DNA of 64,000 bases from Lentisphaerota bacterium (GTDB lineage: Bacteria > Verrucomicrobiota > Kiritimatiellia > RFP12 > UBA1067), in assembly GCA_015061665.1 (NCBI GenBank), contig SUWC01000004.1, positions 17,275-81,274 on the forward strand, given 5' to 3'. The notes beneath the pieces were generated by a model that saw nothing but the letters and a program-made list of their open reading frames with translations, searched no databases and had not been told where the DNA came from. The number at the start of each line of letters is the position of its first letter. The first letter of the stretch is position 1. The position numbers were made by a program, and so were the translations under genes. Below are positions 23,251-43,591 of this stretch, piece after piece.

Positions 23251-23994
23251 TCAGCCCTCCTTGCTTGTGCCTGCATCAGTTGTTTGGAATGAAGTTTGCC
23301 CCGCCGCCCGCAATATCGCCTCGTCTATCCTCTCGGGGATCGTCACGGGAAGCGCATGCTCGGTTCCCTCGACCATCTCCACGACTGCCTGCGGGAAGAC
23401 ACGGGCAAGGAACGCAGCGTTTTCGGGGCGCACTATCCCGTCGCGGAGGCTTTGGAAGACGTGGACTGGGAAGTCCGCCCTGCCGGACGCCGCCAGCGCG
23501 ACAAGCCGCCGCCTGAGGTCCGTCTCGCGCAGATACGAAATGCCGCGCGCAAGGTTCTGCTCGCTATCGACCATGAACGGGTTCGGGCGCCCTTCCGGCA
23601 GGCCGAAGAAGCCAGCGCCTTTCGTCATCTTCAGCCCCGCCTCGAGCGCGGCGAGTCGCCGCTCGCTCATTCCTCGCCAGACGCAGCCGTCGGCGTTGGA
23701 GAGCTCTTCGCTCGCACAGGCCCTCTCCTCCATCATGCGCGGAGTCGCCGCGACGAGGACGAGCGCTCCAATCTTCTCGGGGCACCGCAGCGCAAGCCTC
23801 AGCGCACCGGAGCCGCCCATCGACCATCCGACGACAACCGCCCTGCTGTCAAGCAAATCCATAAACCGCTCGGGCTCGCCGTCCATCTGCTCCACATAAG
23901 AGAAAACCCTCGCGGCCGCATTGCCGCAGAGCGACCTGCAAAGGCTCCATGCCGCAGGACTCGCGGCCCAGCCGTTAAGGACGACTATCCTCAT
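23251..23994 (-). CDS. Alpha/beta hydrolase, BioH-like carboxylesterase
   Basis: VVLNGWAASPAAW, nucleophile elbow VVGWSMGG, C-terminal DG...H. It is collinear with E. coli BioH by eye. ATGA overlap with dapF. Confidence 0.7.
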   Translation of the reverse strand: MRIVVLNGWAASPAAWSLCRSLCGNAAARVFSYVEQMDGEPERFMDLLDSRAVVVGWSMGGSGALRLALRCPEKIGALVLVAATPRMMEERACASEELSNADGCVWRGMSERRLAALEAGLKMTKGAGFFGLPEGRPNPFMVDSEQNLARGISYLRETDLRRRLVALAASGRADFPVHVFQSLRDGIVRPENAAFLARVFPQAVVEMVEGTEHALPVTIPERIDEAILRAAGQTSFQTTDAGTSKEG

Positions 23995-24794: not shown

Positions 24795-27002
24795 TCAGTA
24801 CCCCAGAAAGGCTTCATACCAGTCGAACTTCGGCAAGGGCATCGACTCGCCGCCTGTCATGTCGATCAGGTCGAACAGTATCTCGAAAGCCTCGTCCAGG
24901 ACGATGTCGTCGTCCTTCGTCTTGTTTTTGCGGAAGCGCGACCTGGACTCTTCCTTGTCCTTGCCGTCCTTCTTCTCGTCTAGCTCGCGTATTTCGCGGT
25001 CCGCCCGCATCATCGCCTTGCGCGCACCGCGCTCGAGCGAGACGAACTCGCGGTCTCCCACGGCCTTCATCGCGGCGACGTTCTCCATGTGCTTCTTGAA
25101 CCTCTCGTCGTTCATGCGGCGCGCCTCGGAAAGCGCCGAAAGCCTCGCGATGTATTCGTCGACGTTCCATGCCTTCGAGTAGCCGAGCTTCGCTATGCGC
25201 GTGAAGGGCAGGGCGTAGGTCAGCTTGTCCTCGCCGATGTCGAGCGTGTCGAGAAGCGACGGCAGGCAGATGTCGGACGCAACGCCGTTTAGCTGGGTCG
25301 AGCGCCCGTCGATCCTGTAGAAGCGGGACGTCGTGATCTTCATCGAGCCGAAGTGAGGATTGCCGAGCTCCATCACGGACTGCACCGTCCCCTTCCCGTG
25401 CGTCGTGTGGTCGCCGAGAACAATTGCGCGCCCCGTGTCGCGAAGGTGCCCGGCGGCGATTTCGGACGCGCTGGCGCTGGCACGGTCCACAAGGACCACG
25501 AGGGGCTTGCGGAACGCGGCCTCGTTGCCGCGCTCGATGTAGAGCGGATGGACGCGCAGGTCGCATGTCTGGACGACAGGCCCCTTGTCCACGAACACGC
25601 CCGCAAGGCGAAGCGCCTCTATGAGCGCGCCGCCGCCGTTTCCGCGCAGGTCGAGGACTAGCCCCTCGATTCCCTCGTAGTCGTAGGCCAGCACGAGTCG
25701 CCGCACGTCCTCCGCGGAGCTGCGCGAGCCCTCCTCGCCCGGCCTCTTGTCCATCGTCCCGTAGAATGCGGGAAGATACACGTAGCCGAGCTTGCGGCTC
25801 ACCTCCGCGCCGTCTATCTCGCGCGTGACGGTCTCGACGCGCCCCGTCGCCGCCTGGTCCTCGAGCTTGATCTCGTCGCGCACGAGCTCGATCAGCTTGC
25901 GCGTCATGCCGGAGGGATCGGAGCGCGGCTGGATCTCAAGCGTGACGCGCGTGCCCTTGGGGCCGCGTATCTTCTTGATGGACTTCTTCATCGGCTGCCA
26001 CATGATGTCCTCGACCTTGCCGCCCTCCTGTCCGACGCCGGTGATCTTGTCCCCCTTCTTGATCCGTCCGTCCGTCGCCATCGGGCCGCCCGGCATGACT
26101 TCGGAAATCTTCAACGCCCCGTCGTCCATCGAAAGCACCGCGCCCACGCCGCACAGCGTGAGGTTCATGCCCATGTCGAAGTCCTCCTTCGTCGTCGGGG
26201 ACATGTAGTCCGTATGCGGGTCGTACGCGCGCGACACGGCGGAGAGGTAGTGCTGTAGGACAGCCTCCTCGTCCGGCTCGGTGAGCACGGTTATGTACTG
26301 GCGGTATTTCTTGATGAGGTTCTGCTCGGGAGTCAGCTTCGGGTCGATCTCCTCGCCGTCTTCATCCACGGGAGCCGCGGCCTCCGCGCCTTCCACCGCG
26401 TTCGTCGCGCACCCGACGGCGTTGGTCGTCGCATCGCCCTTGGCGGACTCCTCCGCCTCCTTGGCCTTCTCGCGCGCATCGTCCTCCGCATCGAGTTCGC
26501 GCGACAGTATCTGCGCAAGGACCTCGTTCTTCATGCGCTTGCGCCAGTGGGCCTCCGCGTCCTCGCGCGTCTCGGGCCAGGGGGCGTCCTTGCGCTTGAA
26601 GCGGTAGTCTTCGTCGACCGTGAAGTCCCATTCCGCCGCCATCAGCAGGTTCGTCGCGAAGTCGATCCGCTCGTGCAGGCGCTCGCAGTAGACGCGGTAG
26701 ACGTCGAATCCGAACGAGACGTCGCCCTCCTTCAGCTCGTCGTCGAGCAGCGTCTCGCGCTTGGCGAACTCGTCGAGGTCGGACTTCAGGAACACCGAGT
26801 GGTCGAAGTCGTAGTACGTGACCAGGTTGGTCCATGCCCTTCGGGACATTTCGTCGTCGAACGGCTCGTGCAGGACGTGCAGGTTCGGCAGCATCGCCGC
26901 GACGCGCTGCGCGATGCGCCCGTAGTACGGCTGCGGCTTGACCTCGGCCGCGTTCGCGAGGGCCGCGACGGCCATCGCAAGGACAAATGAGATATTCTTC
27001 AT
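24795..27002 (-). CDS. prc: Tail-specific / C-terminal processing protease (S41, Prc-like)
   Basis: The start was moved to ATG 27002 (MKNISFVLAMAVAALANAAE, a signal peptide). The longer ORF overlaps the upstream gene. A PDZ-like segment is followed by LVDRASASASEIAAG...HGKGTVQS. Confidence 0.85.
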   Translation of the reverse strand: MKNISFVLAMAVAALANAAEVKPQPYYGRIAQRVAAMLPNLHVLHEPFDDEMSRRAWTNLVTYYDFDHSVFLKSDLDEFAKRETLLDDELKEGDVSFGFDVYRVYCERLHERIDFATNLLMAAEWDFTVDEDYRFKRKDAPWPETREDAEAHWRKRMKNEVLAQILSRELDAEDDAREKAKEAEESAKGDATTNAVGCATNAVEGAEAAAPVDEDGEEIDPKLTPEQNLIKKYRQYITVLTEPDEEAVLQHYLSAVSRAYDPHTDYMSPTTKEDFDMGMNLTLCGVGAVLSMDDGALKISEVMPGGPMATDGRIKKGDKITGVGQEGGKVEDIMWQPMKKSIKKIRGPKGTRVTLEIQPRSDPSGMTRKLIELVRDEIKLEDQAATGRVETVTREIDGAEVSRKLGYVYLPAFYGTMDKRPGEEGSRSSAEDVRRLVLAYDYEGIEGLVLDLRGNGGGALIEALRLAGVFVDKGPVVQTCDLRVHPLYIERGNEAAFRKPLVVLVDRASASASEIAAGHLRDTGRAIVLGDHTTHGKGTVQSVMELGNPHFGSMKITTSRFYRIDGRSTQLNGVASDICLPSLLDTLDIGEDKLTYALPFTRIAKLGYSKAWNVDEYIARLSALSEARRMNDERFKKHMENVAAMKAVGDREFVSLERGARKAMMRADREIRELDEKKDGKDKEESRSRFRKNKTKDDDIVLDEAFEILFDLIDMTGGESMPLPKFDWYEAFLGY

Positions 27003-37470: not shown

Positions 37471-38493
37471 TTACCTCGGCTTTCCATCTTTTAAATCGCA
37501 CAAGTTTTGCCTCTCCCTAAGCCCCAATATTCTGTCGTTGTACCGTACACTCTTCGCTATTCCATCTATATCAGGGTAGATGGTTGCCGCGTTGATGTTC
37601 GCCTGATTAAGCATACGCCACGCATCATCCTCCATTTCAGGATCAAACACAAACTTTATGATCGAACTAGGGAAAAGGATTTCCTCGCAAGGAGTTTTCG
37701 AGACCGACCCCATCCTAACCTCAGGCGGATCGTCGATATCTTTAATCGGCACGTCGAATACCGCTGCAAGATTTTTTGTGAATCCGTCAAATGTGCAAGG
37801 CATCAATTCAATACCTGACTGCGCCATCTGACGCATGTTGAAGCGTGCCTTGTATAGCGGGATGATTCCCATGCCTTTATCGCCATTACCATTGTTTATG
37901 TTTTCTTCCGCCAGTTGCAGCATAAACTTGTGAAAATAATAATTGTCAATCTGTGACTCAATCTCCCACCAGACCTCTTCATCGCCTCGCTTCATCAAAT
38001 CAGAACGCTTTGCGTCCTTCAGATACCTACCTTTCCAGCCGCTTCGTTCTATCAGCATTTTATAGTTGATTGCATATATGGCACGCCCCTCACCCGTCAT
38101 CTTCTCCTCGTACGCAAAGAACAAGGCAACCATTATTGATGTCGTAAAATCCAGAAGCCTTGTTTTAGCTCCATAATGCTGCATGGCCAGAAGCGCGGAA
38201 GTATTCGTTGTCCATCCCTCAAATTCGTGGGCCTTTGCCCTAAAATTGGCAACGGCAAAATGCTCCGCCCTTGGCAATGTGAGCGCAAAAGACTTTACAT
38301 CAGTTTTCATTCCGCGCTTTTCTCGGGCGGTAACAATATCTGCAATATACCTGTCAAGGCCACTATCAAGATGATACGAAACCGACTTATGGCCTCTGAA
38401 AATCCAGCGACCATCACCCATGATCTTCATGACTTTAGTGAAGTCACGCCAATTGTGCAGTTTTATTGTACCTGTCTTCGGTCGTTCAGTCAT
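37471..38493 (-). CDS. FRG-domain protein
   Basis: 340 aa: RWIFRGHKSVSYHLDSGLDR, LLAMQHYGAKTRLLDFTTSIMVALFFA and FNMRQMAQSGIEL match the FRG-domain blocks. Confidence 0.85.
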   Translation of the reverse strand: MTERPKTGTIKLHNWRDFTKVMKIMGDGRWIFRGHKSVSYHLDSGLDRYIADIVTAREKRGMKTDVKSFALTLPRAEHFAVANFRAKAHEFEGWTTNTSALLAMQHYGAKTRLLDFTTSIMVALFFAYEEKMTGEGRAIYAINYKMLIERSGWKGRYLKDAKRSDLMKRGDEEVWWEIESQIDNYYFHKFMLQLAEENINNGNGDKGMGIIPLYKARFNMRQMAQSGIELMPCTFDGFTKNLAAVFDVPIKDIDDPPEVRMGSVSKTPCEEILFPSSIIKFVFDPEMEDDAWRMLNQANINAATIYPDIDGIAKSVRYNDRILGLRERQNLCDLKDGKPR

Positions 38494-38506
38494 AGCTCTT
38501 CCTCTC

Positions 38507-38564
38507 CCGCGCCTACCCTACTGGGAGCCGCCGCTTTGGCGCGGAAAAGGAAAGCGGCGCACCC
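38507..38564. repeat. 58-nt structured repeat, copy 1 (in the divergent region between the FRG operon and the ATPase gene)
   Basis: ccgcgcctaccctactgggagccgccgctttggcgcggaaaaggaaagcggcgcaccc. It is 53/58 identical to 39859-39916. Confidence 0.9.
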
Positions 38565-38613
38565 ATATCGTCCGAAATTTCCAGACAAAAATTGAAAATG
38601 TATCTTCGCCCCA

Positions 38614-38642
38614 TTGACTGGGGACAGCGAATATGATATATT
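38614..38642 (+). promoter_or_regulatory. Sigma70 promoter TTGACT-17 nt-(TGa)TATATT for the 38694 ATPase gene
   Basis: TTGACT at 38614-38619, 17-nt spacer, TATATT at 38637-38642 with TG at -14/-15. Confidence 0.5.
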
Positions 38643-38654
38643 TATCCGTGTAAT

Positions 38655-38673
38655 TTCAACAGTAAATGTTGAA
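38655..38673. promoter_or_regulatory. Perfect 7-bp inverted repeat TTCAACA-5 nt-TGTTGAA between promoter and SD (operator candidate)
   Basis: ttcaaca gtaaa tgttgaa at 38655-38673. Confidence 0.3.
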
Positions 38674-38693
38674 TTTGCAAGAATGGAGGCGGT

Positions 38694-39839
38694 ATGGCAT
38701 ACATAAAACGACGACTTGAAGAAAGCGTACGGCGGGCACTTGAGAGGAATCCGGTGGCTGCCGTGATAGGTCCGCGCCAGTGTGGAAAATCCACATTGGT
38801 GAAGCATCTCCGCGAAGATACGGTGCCATCCGTCTACCTCGACCTTGAACGGCCGTCCGACCTTGCAAAATTGTCCGATCCGGAATTGTTCTTTTCCCGT
38901 CACAAGGACAAACTTATTTGCATTGACGAAATACAGCGCAGAGGCGATTTGTTCCCGGTCATAAGAAGCCTTTGCGACGATTGGGGCGGCAACGGACATT
39001 TTCTTGTGCTCGGCTCCGCCTCGCGCGATCTCATCCGCCAGAGTTCCGAATCCCTGGCCGGACGCATCCGCTATGAACGGCTGACTCCGTTCCTTATTTC
39101 CGAACTTGACGGCGCAGACTGGACAAAGTGCCTTTCCCGAGGCGGATTTCCCCGCGCCTATCTCGCATCCGACGACGATGAATCGAATGAGTGGCATGAG
39201 TCTTTCATCCAGACGTTTCTCGAACGGGATCTTCTGTTCTGGCGTGACTTCGTACCGGAGACGATGCGGCGTCTCTGGAAGATGCTTGCGCACGAAAACG
39301 CCCAGATGATCAACTACTCTCGTCTTGCGGCATCGCTTGGCGTGTCCGACATGACAATCAGGCGATATGTCGATCTTCTCAAAGAGACTTTCATGGTAGA
39401 TGTCGTTCCGCCGTACATATCCAATCTCGGCAAGCGGCTCGTGAAAACGCCAAAAGTCTATCTCTGCGACACAGGGCTGACGTGCGCCCTCCTTGGACTC
39501 AAGTCTTTCGACGAACTTTACGCGCATCCCGCATTCGGAGGATGCTGGGAACAGATGGTTCTGGCAAATGTCAGGGGACTTTATCCAGACGCAGACGTCT
39601 CTTTCTACCGGACATCCGCCGGAGCCGAAATGGATTTTGTCGTCAAGAAAGGCCAGCGGACGGTGGCGCTCGAGTGCAAGGCGTCGTCTGCGCCCTCTGT
39701 CGGAAGGGGCACCTACAGCGCGCTTGACGCGATTCGCCCGGACGCAGCGTATGTCGTGGCACCTGTCGAAGAGACCTACGCGCTCAACGACAGAATCACG
39801 GCTATCCCGCTGTCCGGGCTTGGCGACATATTCGCTTGA
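38694..39839 (+). CDS. COG1373-type ATPase (AAA_14 + DUF4143)
   Basis: 381 aa with a GGAGG SD. Walker A GPRQCGKST, Walker B-like LICIDEIQ, and a C-terminal DUF4143-like region (YxxLLxxxF..., GAEMDFVV). Confidence 0.85.
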   Translation: MAYIKRRLEESVRRALERNPVAAVIGPRQCGKSTLVKHLREDTVPSVYLDLERPSDLAKLSDPELFFSRHKDKLICIDEIQRRGDLFPVIRSLCDDWGGNGHFLVLGSASRDLIRQSSESLAGRIRYERLTPFLISELDGADWTKCLSRGGFPRAYLASDDDESNEWHESFIQTFLERDLLFWRDFVPETMRRLWKMLAHENAQMINYSRLAASLGVSDMTIRRYVDLLKETFMVDVVPPYISNLGKRLVKTPKVYLCDTGLTCALLGLKSFDELYAHPAFGGCWEQMVLANVRGLYPDADVSFYRTSAGAEMDFVVKKGQRTVALECKASSAPSVGRGTYSALDAIRPDAAYVVAPVEETYALNDRITAIPLSGLGDIFA

Positions 39840-39858
39840 CGGCACCTTCATCTCCTTT

Positions 39859-39916
39859 CCGCGCCTACCTGACTGGGTGCTGCCGCTTTGGCGCGGAAAA
39901 GAAAAGCGGCGCACCC
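39859..39916. repeat. 58-nt structured repeat, copy 2 (20 nt after the ATPase stop)
   Basis: ccgcgcctacctgactgggtgctgccgctttggcgcggaaaagaaaagcggcgcaccc. Confidence 0.9.
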
Positions 39917-40474
39917 TCGAAATCCCGTCTCGTGGCAGGTGCCGCTAAGAACCTTAACGAAAAACGAGAAAGGAGGGTACGCCGCGTGATTGCCACGCGA
40001 CGCACCATCGTATTCGGTTTTTCGTTGTGTAAAGTTAGCGGCTTTGCCACGAAACCCAATACGCTGATGTTGCGTACATGCTGCGGGCGTCGGATGCGTT
40101 TCCGCAACTCCCTGGAACGGCGCGCTCGGTGATCGCGCCCTGCCAACGGCGACACGACGATCTTCTCGCGGCCTACCGTCGGCGGCGGCTTTATCGAAAC
40201 GGCCCTGCCGGGGTTTTGGCCAGCACACGGATGCGCCGGCCCGAAGGTTCTCCAAACATTGCAAAATAGGTCAGACCTTCTGTGCAGTGTTAGCGAACCA
40301 ATGACAAAGAACAAGTCGCCCCGCTTGCGCGGAACACCTATATTGTAGCAAAAAAACTTTCTTTTGTGCGCTTCGAAATTATCCACAAGAGTTTCCTCCA
40401 CATGGATATTTCCTGAAAATGCAAAAATCTGACAGGGGAATGTTAAAACACTCAGGACGTAATGCAAAAAAAAC

Positions 40475-41587
40475 TCAATACCAAGGTAGAAGACCCTGTT
40501 TCATGAGCTCCTTGGCTGCTTCCCTGTCGAGCAGTACGGACTCCCCCACCTCGTTCGTCGTTTCTATCATTGCGTCACGATACATGTCATACGTAGCGTC
40601 CAGCAACGCCTCGGCAATCGTATCCTTGATCAACGTCCTGTTTTCATTCTCTGTGCCCTCGATGACGCCCCGGTTCTCTTGCAGAGCTTCCGGCTGTGAA
40701 CACGACCAATCCTTTCGCGTCAATGCAGCTAAAATCGCCGATACGCCTACCGCCGCCAACACCACCGCGGCTGCACATGTCCACCATCTGGCCTCATGGC
40801 GGTGGCGCACTGCCCGCGCGAATTCGGAGACTGACGCATACCGCTGTTCGGGAATCGAACTTGTCGAACGCCTGATAATCCTGGCCCATGCCTTCGGCGG
40901 CTTCCCGTCAAAGCAGACATTCGCCAACATCCCGAGTGCATGGATGTCCGTCGCGGGGCCAATCTTGCCGCCCGCAAACTGCTCAGGCGCCGAAAACCCT
41001 GGAGTTCCGACGCCTACGGCACGCCCATCGACAACGGACACAGTGTCGCTGCACATCTGCGACACGTCCTCGTCTTCCTTCGCAAGCCCCAAGTCGATAA
41101 GAACGCATTCGCCGGTCGAAGGCCGCATCATCACATTGCGCGGCTTGATGTCACGATGGATGAATCCGCGCTTATGCAATTCCTCCACGGCGCGCGCCAC
41201 GCCGAGCACATAGGCGGCAACCGCCGCATCGCCGCGAGGGAGTTCCATCGGCTCAAGCAGTTCTTCGGTCAGGTAAAGACGCCCCGAATCTTCGCCCGCG
41301 TCATAGAACTTCGGGAACGCCGTGCCGGACAGCTCCGCCGCGAGCCGGGCCTCCCGCCTGAATCGCACACGGGCCTTGTCGCCGGCGCGATAAAGCACCT
41401 TCAATGCGCCGACAATTCCTGTTGCGGCATTTTCGGCGCGATATACTTCCGCGCTTCCGCCGCGGCCAAGGAAAGCAAGGGCCTTCCAGCCGCCGACTGC
41501 GGAACCGGGCGCCGCGCCCGGCGGCGGCTCGAAGCGCCCATGCTGGCGCAGGCGCCGCTCAAGCTCGCTTTCCGTCGCATCAGGCAT
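40475..41587 (-). CDS. Ser/Thr protein kinase with C-terminal TM anchor and short extracytoplasmic tail
   Basis: 370 aa: GRGGSAEVY, ALK, HRDIKPRNVMM, DLGLA, GTPGFSAPE, then the TM segment WWTCAAAVVLAAVGVSAILAAL. Confidence 0.9.
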   Translation of the reverse strand: MPDATESELERRLRQHGRFEPPPGAAPGSAVGGWKALAFLGRGGSAEVYRAENAATGIVGALKVLYRAGDKARVRFRREARLAAELSGTAFPKFYDAGEDSGRLYLTEELLEPMELPRGDAAVAAYVLGVARAVEELHKRGFIHRDIKPRNVMMRPSTGECVLIDLGLAKEDEDVSQMCSDTVSVVDGRAVGVGTPGFSAPEQFAGGKIGPATDIHALGMLANVCFDGKPPKAWARIIRRSTSSIPEQRYASVSEFARAVRHRHEARWWTCAAAVVLAAVGVSAILAALTRKDWSCSQPEALQENRGVIEGTENENRTLIKDTIAEALLDATYDMYRDAMIETTNEVGESVLLDREAAKELMKQGLLPWY

Positions 41588-42167
41588 CGCCAGCCTCCTC
41601 CAGTGTGCGCACGATTTCGCGGAGCCGTGCGAGCATGCGGCTCTTTGTCTTGTCGACGTTGTTGCGGTTTGTGCCGTATTCGGCAGCTACCTCGTCAGGC
41701 GAAACACCGTCAACAGTCAGCCGCTGGAATATCTGCTTCGACTTTTCGGGTATCTTGTCATCGTCCAGAATCTGCCGCATGGCGATTTCAAGAACCGCGT
41801 CCTTCCAGGAGTCCGAATCGTCCGGCGTGCCGAACGCCTCGCCTGCCTCAGCCAGTTCCTTTAATTCTGCCTTTGCAGTTCTTTCCTTAGTCGCTTTTTC
41901 GCACTGCTTCAGAGCCTTCCTGCGGAGAATGCCAGTGAGATAGTTCCTGAAGCGACCGGTCTCGTCCGGAGCGTACCGATAGCCGTGTATCACATTCGAA
42001 AGCGCAATCAACGTCTCCTGCACCGTGTCGTCGGCATCGACAGCCGGAAAATGTGACTTCATGTACGCCTGCATCATTGGTCGGTACCGGGCGACAAACT
42101 CCGTCCAGCGCGCATTCTCACCGTTTGCAATGCCTTTCAGAAGCGTAGTTGACGTTTCGGGTATCAT
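41580..42167 (-). CDS. ECF-type RNA polymerase sigma factor
   Basis: 195 aa: TSTTLLKGIANGENARWTEFVARYRPMM, region 2 DDTVQETLIAL, and a region 4 HTH. Its stop overlaps the kinase start by 8 nt. Confidence 0.9.
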   Translation of the reverse strand: MIPETSTTLLKGIANGENARWTEFVARYRPMMQAYMKSHFPAVDADDTVQETLIALSNVIHGYRYAPDETGRFRNYLTGILRRKALKQCEKATKERTAKAELKELAEAGEAFGTPDDSDSWKDAVLEIAMRQILDDDKIPEKSKQIFQRLTVDGVSPDEVAAEYGTNRNNVDKTKSRMLARLREIVRTLEEAGDA

Positions 42168-42289: not shown

Positions 42290-43591
42290 TCATTGCGGCT
42301 CCAAAATCCATTTCCAGACAGGTACTATCCTGATTCCGTCGGACTCGCGTTCTTCGTCCCATGTTACGACAGTGCAGTCTTGTACCTTGATTTCGCCTCT
42401 CGCATCTTTCAGCGCCGTCAACTCGCGCCGCACGGTCTCAGAATCCGAAAGCTCCCATGAAACTTGCACAAGACGGCGTTTCTTCGTCACCCTGTCAGTC
42501 ACAAGGAAGTCTACCTCGTCTCCTTTCCGGGTGTTGTAGTATTCGATCTTGTTGAACCCTCGCCGCAAGGCCATGAATACGAGATTCTCAAGAAGCCATC
42601 CACGGGACGCATCGCTCTTTGGTGTCACCGCGCGGGCAAGCCCGGTGTCGACGAGATAGAACTTGTCGGGGTTCATCCTCCGCACGGCAAGCGAATCCGT
42701 GCGAATCGGGACTCTGTAAACGAGATAGGCCTGCTCAAGCCAGTCGAGATAGTCCGCAATGTACTCACGGCTGTCGGAGAGCCCCAGTCCCTTCAAGACT
42801 CCGGATATCGCGCGAGTCGATATCTTATGCGCAAAATTATGCTTGATGTAATCCAGTGTGTAGCGAAGCGACTGCACGCTCGGCACATCATGACGCTCGA
42901 TAATATCCCGATAGAGCACGGCGTCAACATATCCCTGCAGCGTCTTCACGCGGATGCGGAAATCGTCGCCTTGTACATCCGGGAAACCGCCTTCTTCCAA
43001 GTATCGCTGCATCGCATGCCGCAGCACACCGGCCATCCGCGATGAGTATGGGGCCACCGGAATCTCCCCAACAAGGGCATTAAAGCGCAAGAACTCGGCA
43101 AAGGACAGCGGGAACACCTCGACGTCAATTGAACGGCCGCGCATTTGAGTCGCAATCTCGCCCGAGAGCATCTTCGACGACGATCCTGTCAGGCAGAGCT
43201 GCACCAAGTGCGAATCCAAAAGCCTGCGGGCATATAGCTCCCACCCGTCGATGTCTTGAAGTTCATCAAGAAAATACCAGCACCTCTCCCTTGCCGCCTC
43301 CGGAAACATCTCGGCATGGACGCCGCCAATCAGCTTCAGATGCTCAAGCTTGACGCCTTTTAGCCGATCGTCGTCAAAATTGACGTGGACAATCCGCTCC
43401 AGCGGAACGCCTTCCTCGACAAGCGCGCGCATCCTCTGGTATGTGACGTATGTCTTCCCCGTTCGCCGCATTCCAGTGACAACAGTCGCAGAATTACGCT
43501 TTTCAAAATAATCGACATCGCGAGGGCGAACGTCTTCGGGTATTCCGAATTCGTAAAACTCGCGCATTATCTCTCCAATGACTGCTTTCAT
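42290..43591 (-). CDS. COG1373-type ATPase (AAA_14 + DUF4143), second copy
   Basis: 433 aa: Walker A GMRRTGKT, WYFLDELQ, and a C-terminal GDEVDFLV block. Confidence 0.85.
   Translation of the reverse strand: MKAVIGEIMREFYEFGIPEDVRPRDVDYFEKRNSATVVTGMRRTGKTYVTYQRMRALVEEGVPLERIVHVNFDDDRLKGVKLEHLKLIGGVHAEMFPEAARERCWYFLDELQDIDGWELYARRLLDSHLVQLCLTGSSSKMLSGEIATQMRGRSIDVEVFPLSFAEFLRFNALVGEIPVAPYSSRMAGVLRHAMQRYLEEGGFPDVQGDDFRIRVKTLQGYVDAVLYRDIIERHDVPSVQSLRYTLDYIKHNFAHKISTRAISGVLKGLGLSDSREYIADYLDWLEQAYLVYRVPIRTDSLAVRRMNPDKFYLVDTGLARAVTPKSDASRGWLLENLVFMALRRGFNKIEYYNTRKGDEVDFLVTDRVTKKRRLVQVSWELSDSETVRRELTALKDARGEIKVQDCTVVTWDEERESDGIRIVPVWKWILEPQ

Follow-up and report, generated by a model that had tools for sequence, protein, structure and literature searches.

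The 58-nt repeats around a COG1373 ATPase gene of a gut Lentisphaerota bacterium as a probable duplicated expression platform of a structured leader RNA

Riboswitches and attenuators act through expression platforms in which interleaved, mutually exclusive helices have one strand in common between an upstream domain and a downstream helix. A U or pyrimidine tract follows the stem, and the ribosome site, directly upstream of the start codon, is occluded in one state. Here, we describe a leader RNA with the same predicted layout in a 64,000-nt stretch of DNA from a Lentisphaerota bacterium (the window: positions 17275-81274 of the 86 kb contig C155, in the 3.44 Mb assembly G000), where the 58-nt tail of the leader occurs as two direct repeats that bracket an ATPase-nuclease gene of the COG1373 type. 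Unlike riboswitches, this leader has no known aptamer or Rfam match, its family precedes unrelated defence-like genes and not one pathway, and its pyrimidine tract doubles as an anti-Shine-Dalgarno (anti-SD) sequence. Our analysis indicates that the 58-nt unit probably serves as expression platform in a structured, minus-strand leader RNA and was probably duplicated by insertion of the ATPase cassette.

The cassette itself recalls several mobile elements. IS1634 of Mycoplasma mycoides is reportedly an insertion sequence that has a DDE transposase, is bounded by terminal inverted repeats and generates long direct repeats of varying size. The cassette studied here resembles it as an insert flanked by apparent long target duplications, whose length varies by insertion from tens to hundreds of bp. 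Unlike IS1634, it codes for an AAA+ ATPase fused to a PD-(D/E)xK nuclease, and its mobility is putative. A Pfam search of the cassette returned AAA_14, HTH and DUF4143 only and no transposase, a repeat search found no inverted repeats at its ends, and the duplication length (32-277 nt) is not fixed, which places it outside the DDE insertion sequences. Integron cassettes are likewise single-gene units bounded by a structured imperfect palindrome of ~60 nt. Here, however, there is no integrase, attI or array, the cassette has its own promoter, and the site is a duplicated host leader that is not cassette-borne; an earlier note on this DNA, made from the sequence alone, had rightly seen neither a CRISPR nor an integron attC in the repeat. 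Finally, the ATPase matches the PADLOC profile PDC-S01 and lies in a defence-like island together with a PDC-S15 FRG gene and a PD-T4-6-like kinase. PDC-S01 is a candidate defence gene only, and the literature found neither reports target duplications for it nor mentions flanking repeats or target duplications at COG1373 genes, which are listed among horizontally shared gut genes (PMC10782964). Neither the leader RNA family nor the ATPase cassettes with their flanking repeats appear to have been described before.

The repeat pair and its leader RNA family

Copy 1 (38507-38564) and copy 2 (39859-39916), both considered on the minus strand, form one direct-repeat family of 58 nt, with a spacing of 1352 and an ungapped identity of 53/58 (91%), as the earlier note had reported. 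Its four complementary segments were also found exactly where it had placed them: CCGCGCC at 38507 and 39859, GCCGCTTT at 38530 and 39882, GGCGCGG at 38538 and 39890, and AAAGCGGC at 38551 and 39903. A 20-nt core of the repeat occurs twice in the window against an expectation of 0.03, so the repeat is no chance match. Searching the whole 3.44 Mb genome gave full matches at these two places only (E=1e-26 and 1.8e-17) and not at many scattered ones. Other matches to the 58-mer were only 14-32 nt long (E>0.008), and partial ones on contigs C112 and C11 were discarded as coding or unrelated sequence. An exact 20-mer scan of 185,579 species genomes yielded just two chance matches (Micavibrio and Pacificibacter). 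Read on the minus strand, each copy precedes a purine-rich Shine-Dalgarno sequence (SD) and an ATG, which lies at 38493 (the start of the FRG gene) after copy 1 and at 39851 after copy 2, again as had been claimed.

A BLAST search with the whole spacer between the kinase and FRG genes revealed a conserved non-coding element of ~250 nt, running from 40125 to 39851 of the window on the minus strand and present in many genomes and contexts. Copy 2 is contiguous with this conserved leader in the alignments and forms its native 3' tail, and the repeat starts exactly at a conserved arm of the leader. The element therefore belongs to the 5' leader of the FRG operon, as had been proposed; as first drawn it was incomplete, since its 58 nt are only the tail of a leader of ~250-465 nt, and its S1 stem extends via a pyrimidine tract to the SD. 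For the family as a whole, the length is put at ~180-460 nt. In a genome of the same genus (G014), one copy of the element lies between a long imperfect hairpin, homologous to 39917-40060, and the FRG start codon.

BLAST alone detected the leader in 72 of 221 genomes of the family. A hidden Markov model combined with a covariance model found three copies in G000, one on C155 and the others at C21:287-469 and C14:571-760. The covariance model, R1 (181 positions, 47 pairs), matched 51 of 401 genomes drawn evenly from the phylum, corresponding to 28 of 184 genera and at least 16 family labels, and some of the sampled genomes carry six or more copies. The match at the window locus (C155:57170-57353, 175 bits) delimits a conserved core at 39896-40079 on the minus strand, which comprises a P1 hairpin, a rod of helices P2-P5 (39927-40055) and a terminator-like 3' arm with its U tract. 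A scan against Rfam 15 returned nothing at E<2, even with the search limited to 500 nt; the best E values were 2.2-4.2, far under the gathering scores.

The consensus structure of 29 copies, obtained with RNAalifold, consists of the P1 hairpin (UACGC-AACA-GCGUA) and a long rod of four helices. Compensatory double changes were found in 22 of the 50 predicted pairs, for instance CCGCUAA/UUAGCGG versus CGACCAA/UUGGUCG, and P4 shows turnover of the whole helix. G-U pairs are frequent on the minus strand (UG:21, GU:19, GU:16, UG:20 and others) and would be A-C on the other strand, so the leader is read on the minus strand, like the genes downstream. Folded as a single sequence, it gives a z-score of -6.25.

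The genes downstream of the leaders are diverse. FRG and Zn-ribbon proteins were found three times each; Sel1, SPFH, DEAD/SNF2 helicases and PtuA-like ATPases twice each; and a kinase, PLD, DO-GTPase2, SRA, a trypsin-like protein and LRR_5 once each. The leader family thus precedes many unrelated, defence-like genes. FRG orthologs stand directly behind the leader in G014, G173 and G177, and before the insertion the leader probably controlled an operon headed by FRG.

The 5' end of the leader appears to have a life of its own. The block GGAGYUGCGGAAACGCAUCCGACGCCCGCAGC plus P1 (40056-40149) occurs without the rod in G239, G011, G202, G022 and G154, and depth over the same interval spikes 5- to 8-fold in gut DNA metagenomes; both observations mark it as a separate, more widely repeated module. 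We considered GGAG..GCGGAAAC..CGCAGC as a promoter for an extracytoplasmic function (ECF) sigma factor and dropped this reading, as a hairpin lies there and other hairpins replace it in other leaders; it is also countered by RNA contigs that start ~200 nt further upstream.

The sequence is present in several gut metatranscriptomes. In X25, which carries the same strain, a 465-nt contig matches 39851-40315 with 0 mismatches at a depth of 12.6; X27 has a contig spanning 39993-40318 at a depth of 13.1, and X33 one spanning 40008-40274. RNA depth over the ATPase gene is 2.4-4.2, and over the FRG and kinase genes it is 0. By these contig depths, no other RNA of the locus is as abundant as the leader with copy 2 in X25, the one sample with this strain; of the transcription of the FRG-operon leader that the earlier note had asked about, the leader and copy 2 are thus seen in RNA and FRG is not. 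The X25 contig ends at the foot of the S1 hairpin, beside the A of the ATG at 39851, although such contigs are strandless and their ends are not true RNA ends, the strand of the leader being taken from its G-U pairs. The runs that contain the locus come from faeces and from pig and bovine gut, which identifies the organism as an uncultured gut bacterium.

Competing helices in the repeated tail

On the minus strand, copy 2 reads GGGUGCGCCGCUUU, which serves both as the terminator-like 3' arm and as the 5' arm of S2, then UCUUUU, the pyrimidine or anti-SD tract. There follow CCGCGCC (S1 5' arm), AAAGCGGCAGCACCC (S2 3' arm), a loop and GGCGCGG (S1 3' arm). The S2 segment can also be written GCCGCUUU, and the terminal strand of the leader is GGGUGCGCCGCU, followed by the pyrimidine tract. 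The conserved core of all leaders ends with GRGUGCGCCGCU and the pyrimidine tract UCUUCUUUU. Beyond this point the sequence differs among loci, and the start codon lies 62-82 nt past the arm in most of them.

Three pairings compete for the arm. In the backward pairing, the arm joins the 3' strand of rod helices P2 and P3 (UUAGCGGYRCC...CACGAGA) and would form a terminator-like hairpin followed by a U tract. The stem AGCGGYRC/GCGCCGCU and the tract are conserved; the loop is long, and a simple terminator scan made no call. The terminator-like function of this helix is modelled, and covariation cannot back it because the sequence there is invariant.

The second pairing is an extended S1, whose helix continues beyond the two S1 arms through pairing of the pyrimidine tract with the SD (CUUUUCUUUUCCGCGCC with GGCGCGGAAAGGAG). 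RNAfold predicts such an SD-sequestering hairpin in ~24 of 31 tails, even though the S1 sequences themselves vary (CCGCGCC, GCCGC, GCCUC, GCCUCUUCG, UGCCGCA and others). Cognate 5' and 3' parts of the tails pair at -19.3 kcal/mol versus -15.3 kcal/mol for non-cognate ones, and 0 of 5000 permutations were as good. With its conserved position and its covariation, the leader tail matches the pattern of a cis-regulatory leader with an SD-sequestering helix.

In the third pairing, S2, GGGUGCGCCGCUUU pairs with AAAGCGGC-A-GCACCC, a complement directly after the S1 5' arm. Of 29 leaders, 17 have a complement in this position (5% shuffle level; ~1.5 expected), and the variable starts of the arm (GGG, GAG, AAG, AGG) are answered by CCC, CUC and CUU in the S2 complement. 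As read from the alignments, covariation supports both S1 and S2. The recurrence of both helices with compensatory changes in homologous leaders bears out the earlier proposal that the element is a selected structure, and the interleaving of S1 and S2, also noted then, is consistent with mutually exclusive helices or with an H-type pseudoknot with an 8-bp S2 core.

The two copies in the window differ at offsets 12, 13, 20, 23 and 44. All five substitutions avoid the 30 positions of S1 and S2 as originally drawn (P ~0.026). The claim that the mismatches lie outside the stems holds for those short stems and fails for the full helices, where offset 20 lies in an extension of S2 and offset 44 in the SD-pairing tract. 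The 6-bp extension of S2, GGGTGC/GCACCC, is perfect in copy 2 and mismatched in copy 1. At offset 44, the anti-SD tract changes from one copy to the other (UUUUCUUUU versus UUUCCUUUU), each facing a different SD (AAAGGAGA versus GAGAGGAAGAG). The predicted extended-S1 folds are equally stable, at -38.2 kcal/mol in copy 2 and -37.8 kcal/mol in copy 1. The predicted S2 fold is weaker in copy 1 (-26.5 versus -31.8 kcal/mol in copy 2), because offset 20 breaks the GGGUGC/GCACCC extension.

Taken as a model, these pairings outline a switch with two outputs, both of which would depend on how the upstream rod is folded. With the rod in place, the arm would be free, S2 could form and the SD would be exposed; when the arm is held by the terminator-like helix, extended S1 would form and the SD would be occluded. 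The S1 state would thus close the ribosome site and the S2 state would open it.

In a strain of the metagenome X2, copy 2 has six substitutions, all of them in its loop and S2a (39870-39889), which make it G207-like, while copy 1 is unchanged. This pattern suggests allele exchange among leader copies.

Probable insertion of the ATPase cassette and its alternatives

The 1294-bp segment between the copies (38565-39858, plus strand) is a compact cassette, consisting of a promoter, a palindromic operator, the ATPase gene and a tail of ~15-19 nt. The promoter is sigma-70-like (TTGACT-17-TATATT, 38614-38642, plus strand; 10/12 in a promoter scan, with an extended TG). Behind it, an imperfect palindrome, TAATTTCAACA-N5-TGTTGAATTTGCA (38651-38679, plus strand), is conserved in G243, G220 and G208 and is probably the operator for the winged helix-turn-helix (wHTH) domain of the protein itself. 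Distant COG1373 genes (L111, L114 and L138) have a palindrome of the type TTGCAAAT.TCAA...TTGA.ATTTGCAA between promoter and start codon.

The gene (38694-39839, plus strand) codes for a 381-aa protein with AAA_14, wHTH and DUF4143 domains, the last of which has been placed in the PD-(D/E)xK superfamily (PMC3424549). Its assignment to AAA_14/DUF4143 (COG1373) and PDC-S01 follows from profile matches above the curated cut-offs (PF13173, 1.2e-24, 87.1 bits; PF13635, 1.7e-41, 142.1 bits; PDC-S01, 1.6e-89, 298.6 bits), together with P-loop and PD-(D/E)xK motifs read in the translation (Walker A GPRQCGKS, Walker B ICIDEIQ, nuclease EMDFV...LECK).

Relatives with FRG behind the leader and without the ATPase gene provide the key comparison. 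In G014, the leader is followed by a single platform, the SD and FRG-CBS; in G173, it is followed by a single platform, the SD and an FRG gene that is 90% identical and has one in-frame stop. No ATPase gene intervenes in either. Since both have the leader with one tail and FRG, the cassette is read as an insertion with a 58-bp target duplication, in agreement with the earlier suggestion that an ATPase gene with its own promoter had inserted into the leader and duplicated the element. Colinearity between the window and G014 extends to either side of a clean 1352-bp difference, made up of the 1294-bp cassette and the second platform. Copy 1 (38507-38564), an isolated platform duplicate with no leader body upstream, lies 13 nt before the FRG start codon; its closest platform is copy 2 (53/58), followed by that of G014 at 50/58, which favours duplication in place. 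A second platform downstream was found at 0 of 28 other leader loci. The copies have diverged by 8.6%, so the duplication is old. The filled arrangement was found in 7 of 7 contigs with an identical FRG, 6 of 6 with an identical kinase and 3 of 3 with an identical ATPase protein, and hence the duplication is fixed in the species. No excision joints were found in four DNA metagenomes. An insertion with a long target duplication is the likely history of the window locus.

In this scenario, the cassette would have landed between the platform and the FRG ribosome site and duplicated the 58-bp platform. Copy 2 would have stayed on the leader, and copy 1 before FRG with an SD-sequestering hairpin and without the sensing body. 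The ATPase gene would then point opposite to the transcribed leader. Transcription of FRG might start at a weak outward promoter in the A+T-rich end of the cassette (TTGAAA-18-CATATT, 38659-38630) or reach the gene by read-through across the cassette.

Several points weigh against this reading. The 8.6% difference between the copies equals that between copy 2 and the platform of G014, and gene conversion with other leader alleles may have blurred the duplication. The seemingly empty relatives could be revertants, given that recombination between the repeats restores the empty site exactly. In G243, the cassette is flanked by platform pieces shifted by ~45 nt and detached from the rod, for which a single simple insertion is insufficient. 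As to the RNA, the contigs lack strand and true ends, the X25 contig crosses the U tract, and FRG has zero coverage in the sole informative sample; the terminator-like helix, moreover, is made of invariant sequence outside the reach of covariation.

The strongest alternative is a mosaic assembly, in which the repeats are seams where recombination in a fast-rearranging accessory locus joined a sigma-kinase-leader-platform segment, with a convergent ATPase gene downstream, to a platform-FRG operon. The same leader allele does occur with other downstream genes, as in G207 and G019, which carry a Zn-ribbon gene and where homology breaks at the SD. A strain in the pig-gut metagenome X11 has copy 1 and the ATPase gene followed by a different gene, the G243 cassette has platform pieces and no rod, and some variants of copy 1 (TTTCCTTTT, AGGGTAGG) are common to the G177 and G243 platforms and not to copy 2. 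Overall, however, copy 1 is closest to copy 2 and to no other platform, and a mosaic would hardly give exact colinearity with G014 around a clean difference. It is also at odds with an independent paralog in the same genome (on C79), which has filled and empty sites with an unrelated repeat, and with the homologous cassettes flanked by unrelated repeats in many other organisms. We regard a mosaic origin as possible and rather unlikely. The change of gene in X11 is located at 38505 (minus-strand loose end ...AGGAGAATGCGATAGCAATGTCAGAACC), so that downstream cassettes were swapped right at the SD.

The earlier note had compared the repeats to attL and attR. On such a reading, the 58-mer would be the core site of a small integrative element moved by a tyrosine or serine recombinase encoded elsewhere. 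Direct repeats of att length do bracket a discrete single-gene unit, and the site is palindromic, like attC. However, contig C155 has no PF00589 (Phage_integrase) match, the four in the genome being on other contigs, and the cassette codes for the ATPase-nuclease only. The repeat is target sequence, single in empty relatives and part of an RNA leader; the cassette of G220 lacks the site, and other cassettes are flanked by unrelated repeats of 32-277 nt. Nor are there cassette arrays, and identical ATPase proteins occur in this one context only. The att reading is already largely refuted, and we consider it very improbable. A generic dispersed REP/BIME-like or terminator element lying on both sides of the ATPase gene by chance, as the G+C-rich, palindromic sequence at gene ends might suggest, is refuted by copy number and context and has next to no chance of being correct, with two copies only in 3.44 Mb, homologs in other genomes that always lie at the 3' end of a leader, 62-82 nt before a start codon, and no T run following on the plus strand.

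Repeats at other COG1373 cassettes and the surrounding genes

The window cassette can be compared with related ones. That of G243 (91% protein identity) is homologous over 38596-39931, a span that takes in one platform copy, joined in the same way at the stop-codon end, and its flanking repeats of 52-64 nt are platform-derived. That of G220 (93%) is homologous over 38629-39850 only and lies in another context, with neither platform nor repeats. The extents of these two homologies set the limits of the cassette. The G208 cassette is flanked by repeats of 208 nt with 96% identity and unrelated sequence; this sequence was absent from the 117 genomes of the genus searched, where only the adjoining core gene was found. 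In L094 (G148), a 38%-identical ATPase homolog lies within a tandem array with a period of ~24 nt (1219-1477 and 2704-2818, on both sides of the gene).

Among metagenome loci, 17 of 67 testable ATPase loci have flanking repeats. Under a strict count, which excludes low-complexity, REP-like and operator repeats, 9 of 66 loci retain them, with lengths of 32-277 nt. As controls, 5 of 398 other open reading frames of G000 have repeats, all of 15-31 nt, and 0 of 398 pass the strict criteria (Fisher p = 1.1e-11 for all repeats and 1.5e-8 for the strict set). The strongest repeat matches in G000 itself belong to the ATPase gene and to a 25%-identical paralog, C79:23872-25155. Neighbouring genes in the same metagenome loci gave 2 of 75, versus 9 of 66 for the ATPase (p = 0.024), and their strong matches were two more AAA_14 paralogs, a PDDEXK_2 gene and a Fic gene. 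The PDDEXK_2 gene ('PD-(D/E)XK nuclease family transposase', L123:5491-6354, the same as in L124) has direct repeats of 44 nt and the Fic/DOC gene (L177:1245-2771) has direct repeats of 111 nt; both genes lie beside ATPase homologs.

The C79 paralog lies between repeats of ~45 nt at 23775-23813 and 25301-25346 (CATGAGCCAWTTTAAGKCGTTRTCCGC.AAAAATGAGCC), and G254 (L197) shows the corresponding empty site, with the left segment, one repeat and the right flank and no ATPase gene. At C79:23372-23470, a third partial repeat is joined to a fragment of the cassette end, hinting at a decayed second insertion. The flanking repeats of COG1373 genes are heterogeneous: in L163, the repeat resembles a duplicated 5' piece of the next gene and not a simple target duplication, and the G220 cassette has none. 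The duplications might come from staggered cuts by the PD-(D/E)xK nuclease that the cassette encodes, from integration of a circle via short homology, or from template switching. A broader proposal is that COG1373-type genes are autonomous single-gene mobile cassettes with long, variable target duplications (~30-280 bp), possibly from staggered cuts by their own ATPase-nuclease, the 58-nt repeat being one such footprint, left in the tail of an as yet undescribed riboregulator that serves defence genes across the phylum. We put this forward as speculation and think it is more probably wrong than right by a wide measure.

Around the cassette, the FRG-domain gene (PDC-S15 type, 37471-38493, minus strand) was identified with Pfam (FRG, 1.5e-17) and PADLOC. 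On the other side, the minus strand carries the PD-T4-6-like Ser/Thr kinase (40475-41587), an ECF sigma factor (41580-42167) and a second AAA_14/DUF4143 gene (42290-43591). Antisense to the ATPase gene, an open frame of 453 codons (38490-39851, minus strand) begins at the SD and ATG behind copy 2 and terminates in a TGA overlapping the ATG of FRG (ATGA). The ATPase gene is free of TTA, CTA and TCA codons, which is true of only 2 of 99 homologs, the nearest relatives having one each. A gene caller called the frame on a cut contig (L203). It is unlikely to be a gene, as it is broken in G243, and its openness is probably due to chance, though it could keep ribosomes on a read-through transcript.

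If the proposed switch is correct, its sharing by the members of an immune regulon would give bacteria a novel means of coordinating defence; the leader precedes FRG, SPFH, Zn-ribbon, helicase, PLD and kinase genes and is found in at least 28 of the 184 sampled genera. A cassette landing in such a switch would duplicate its output module and cut the downstream operon from its sensor. And if COG1373 genes, which are very common, do indeed have long local duplications at their flanks much more frequently than other genes do, this would point to an unrecognised route by which they move or are captured.

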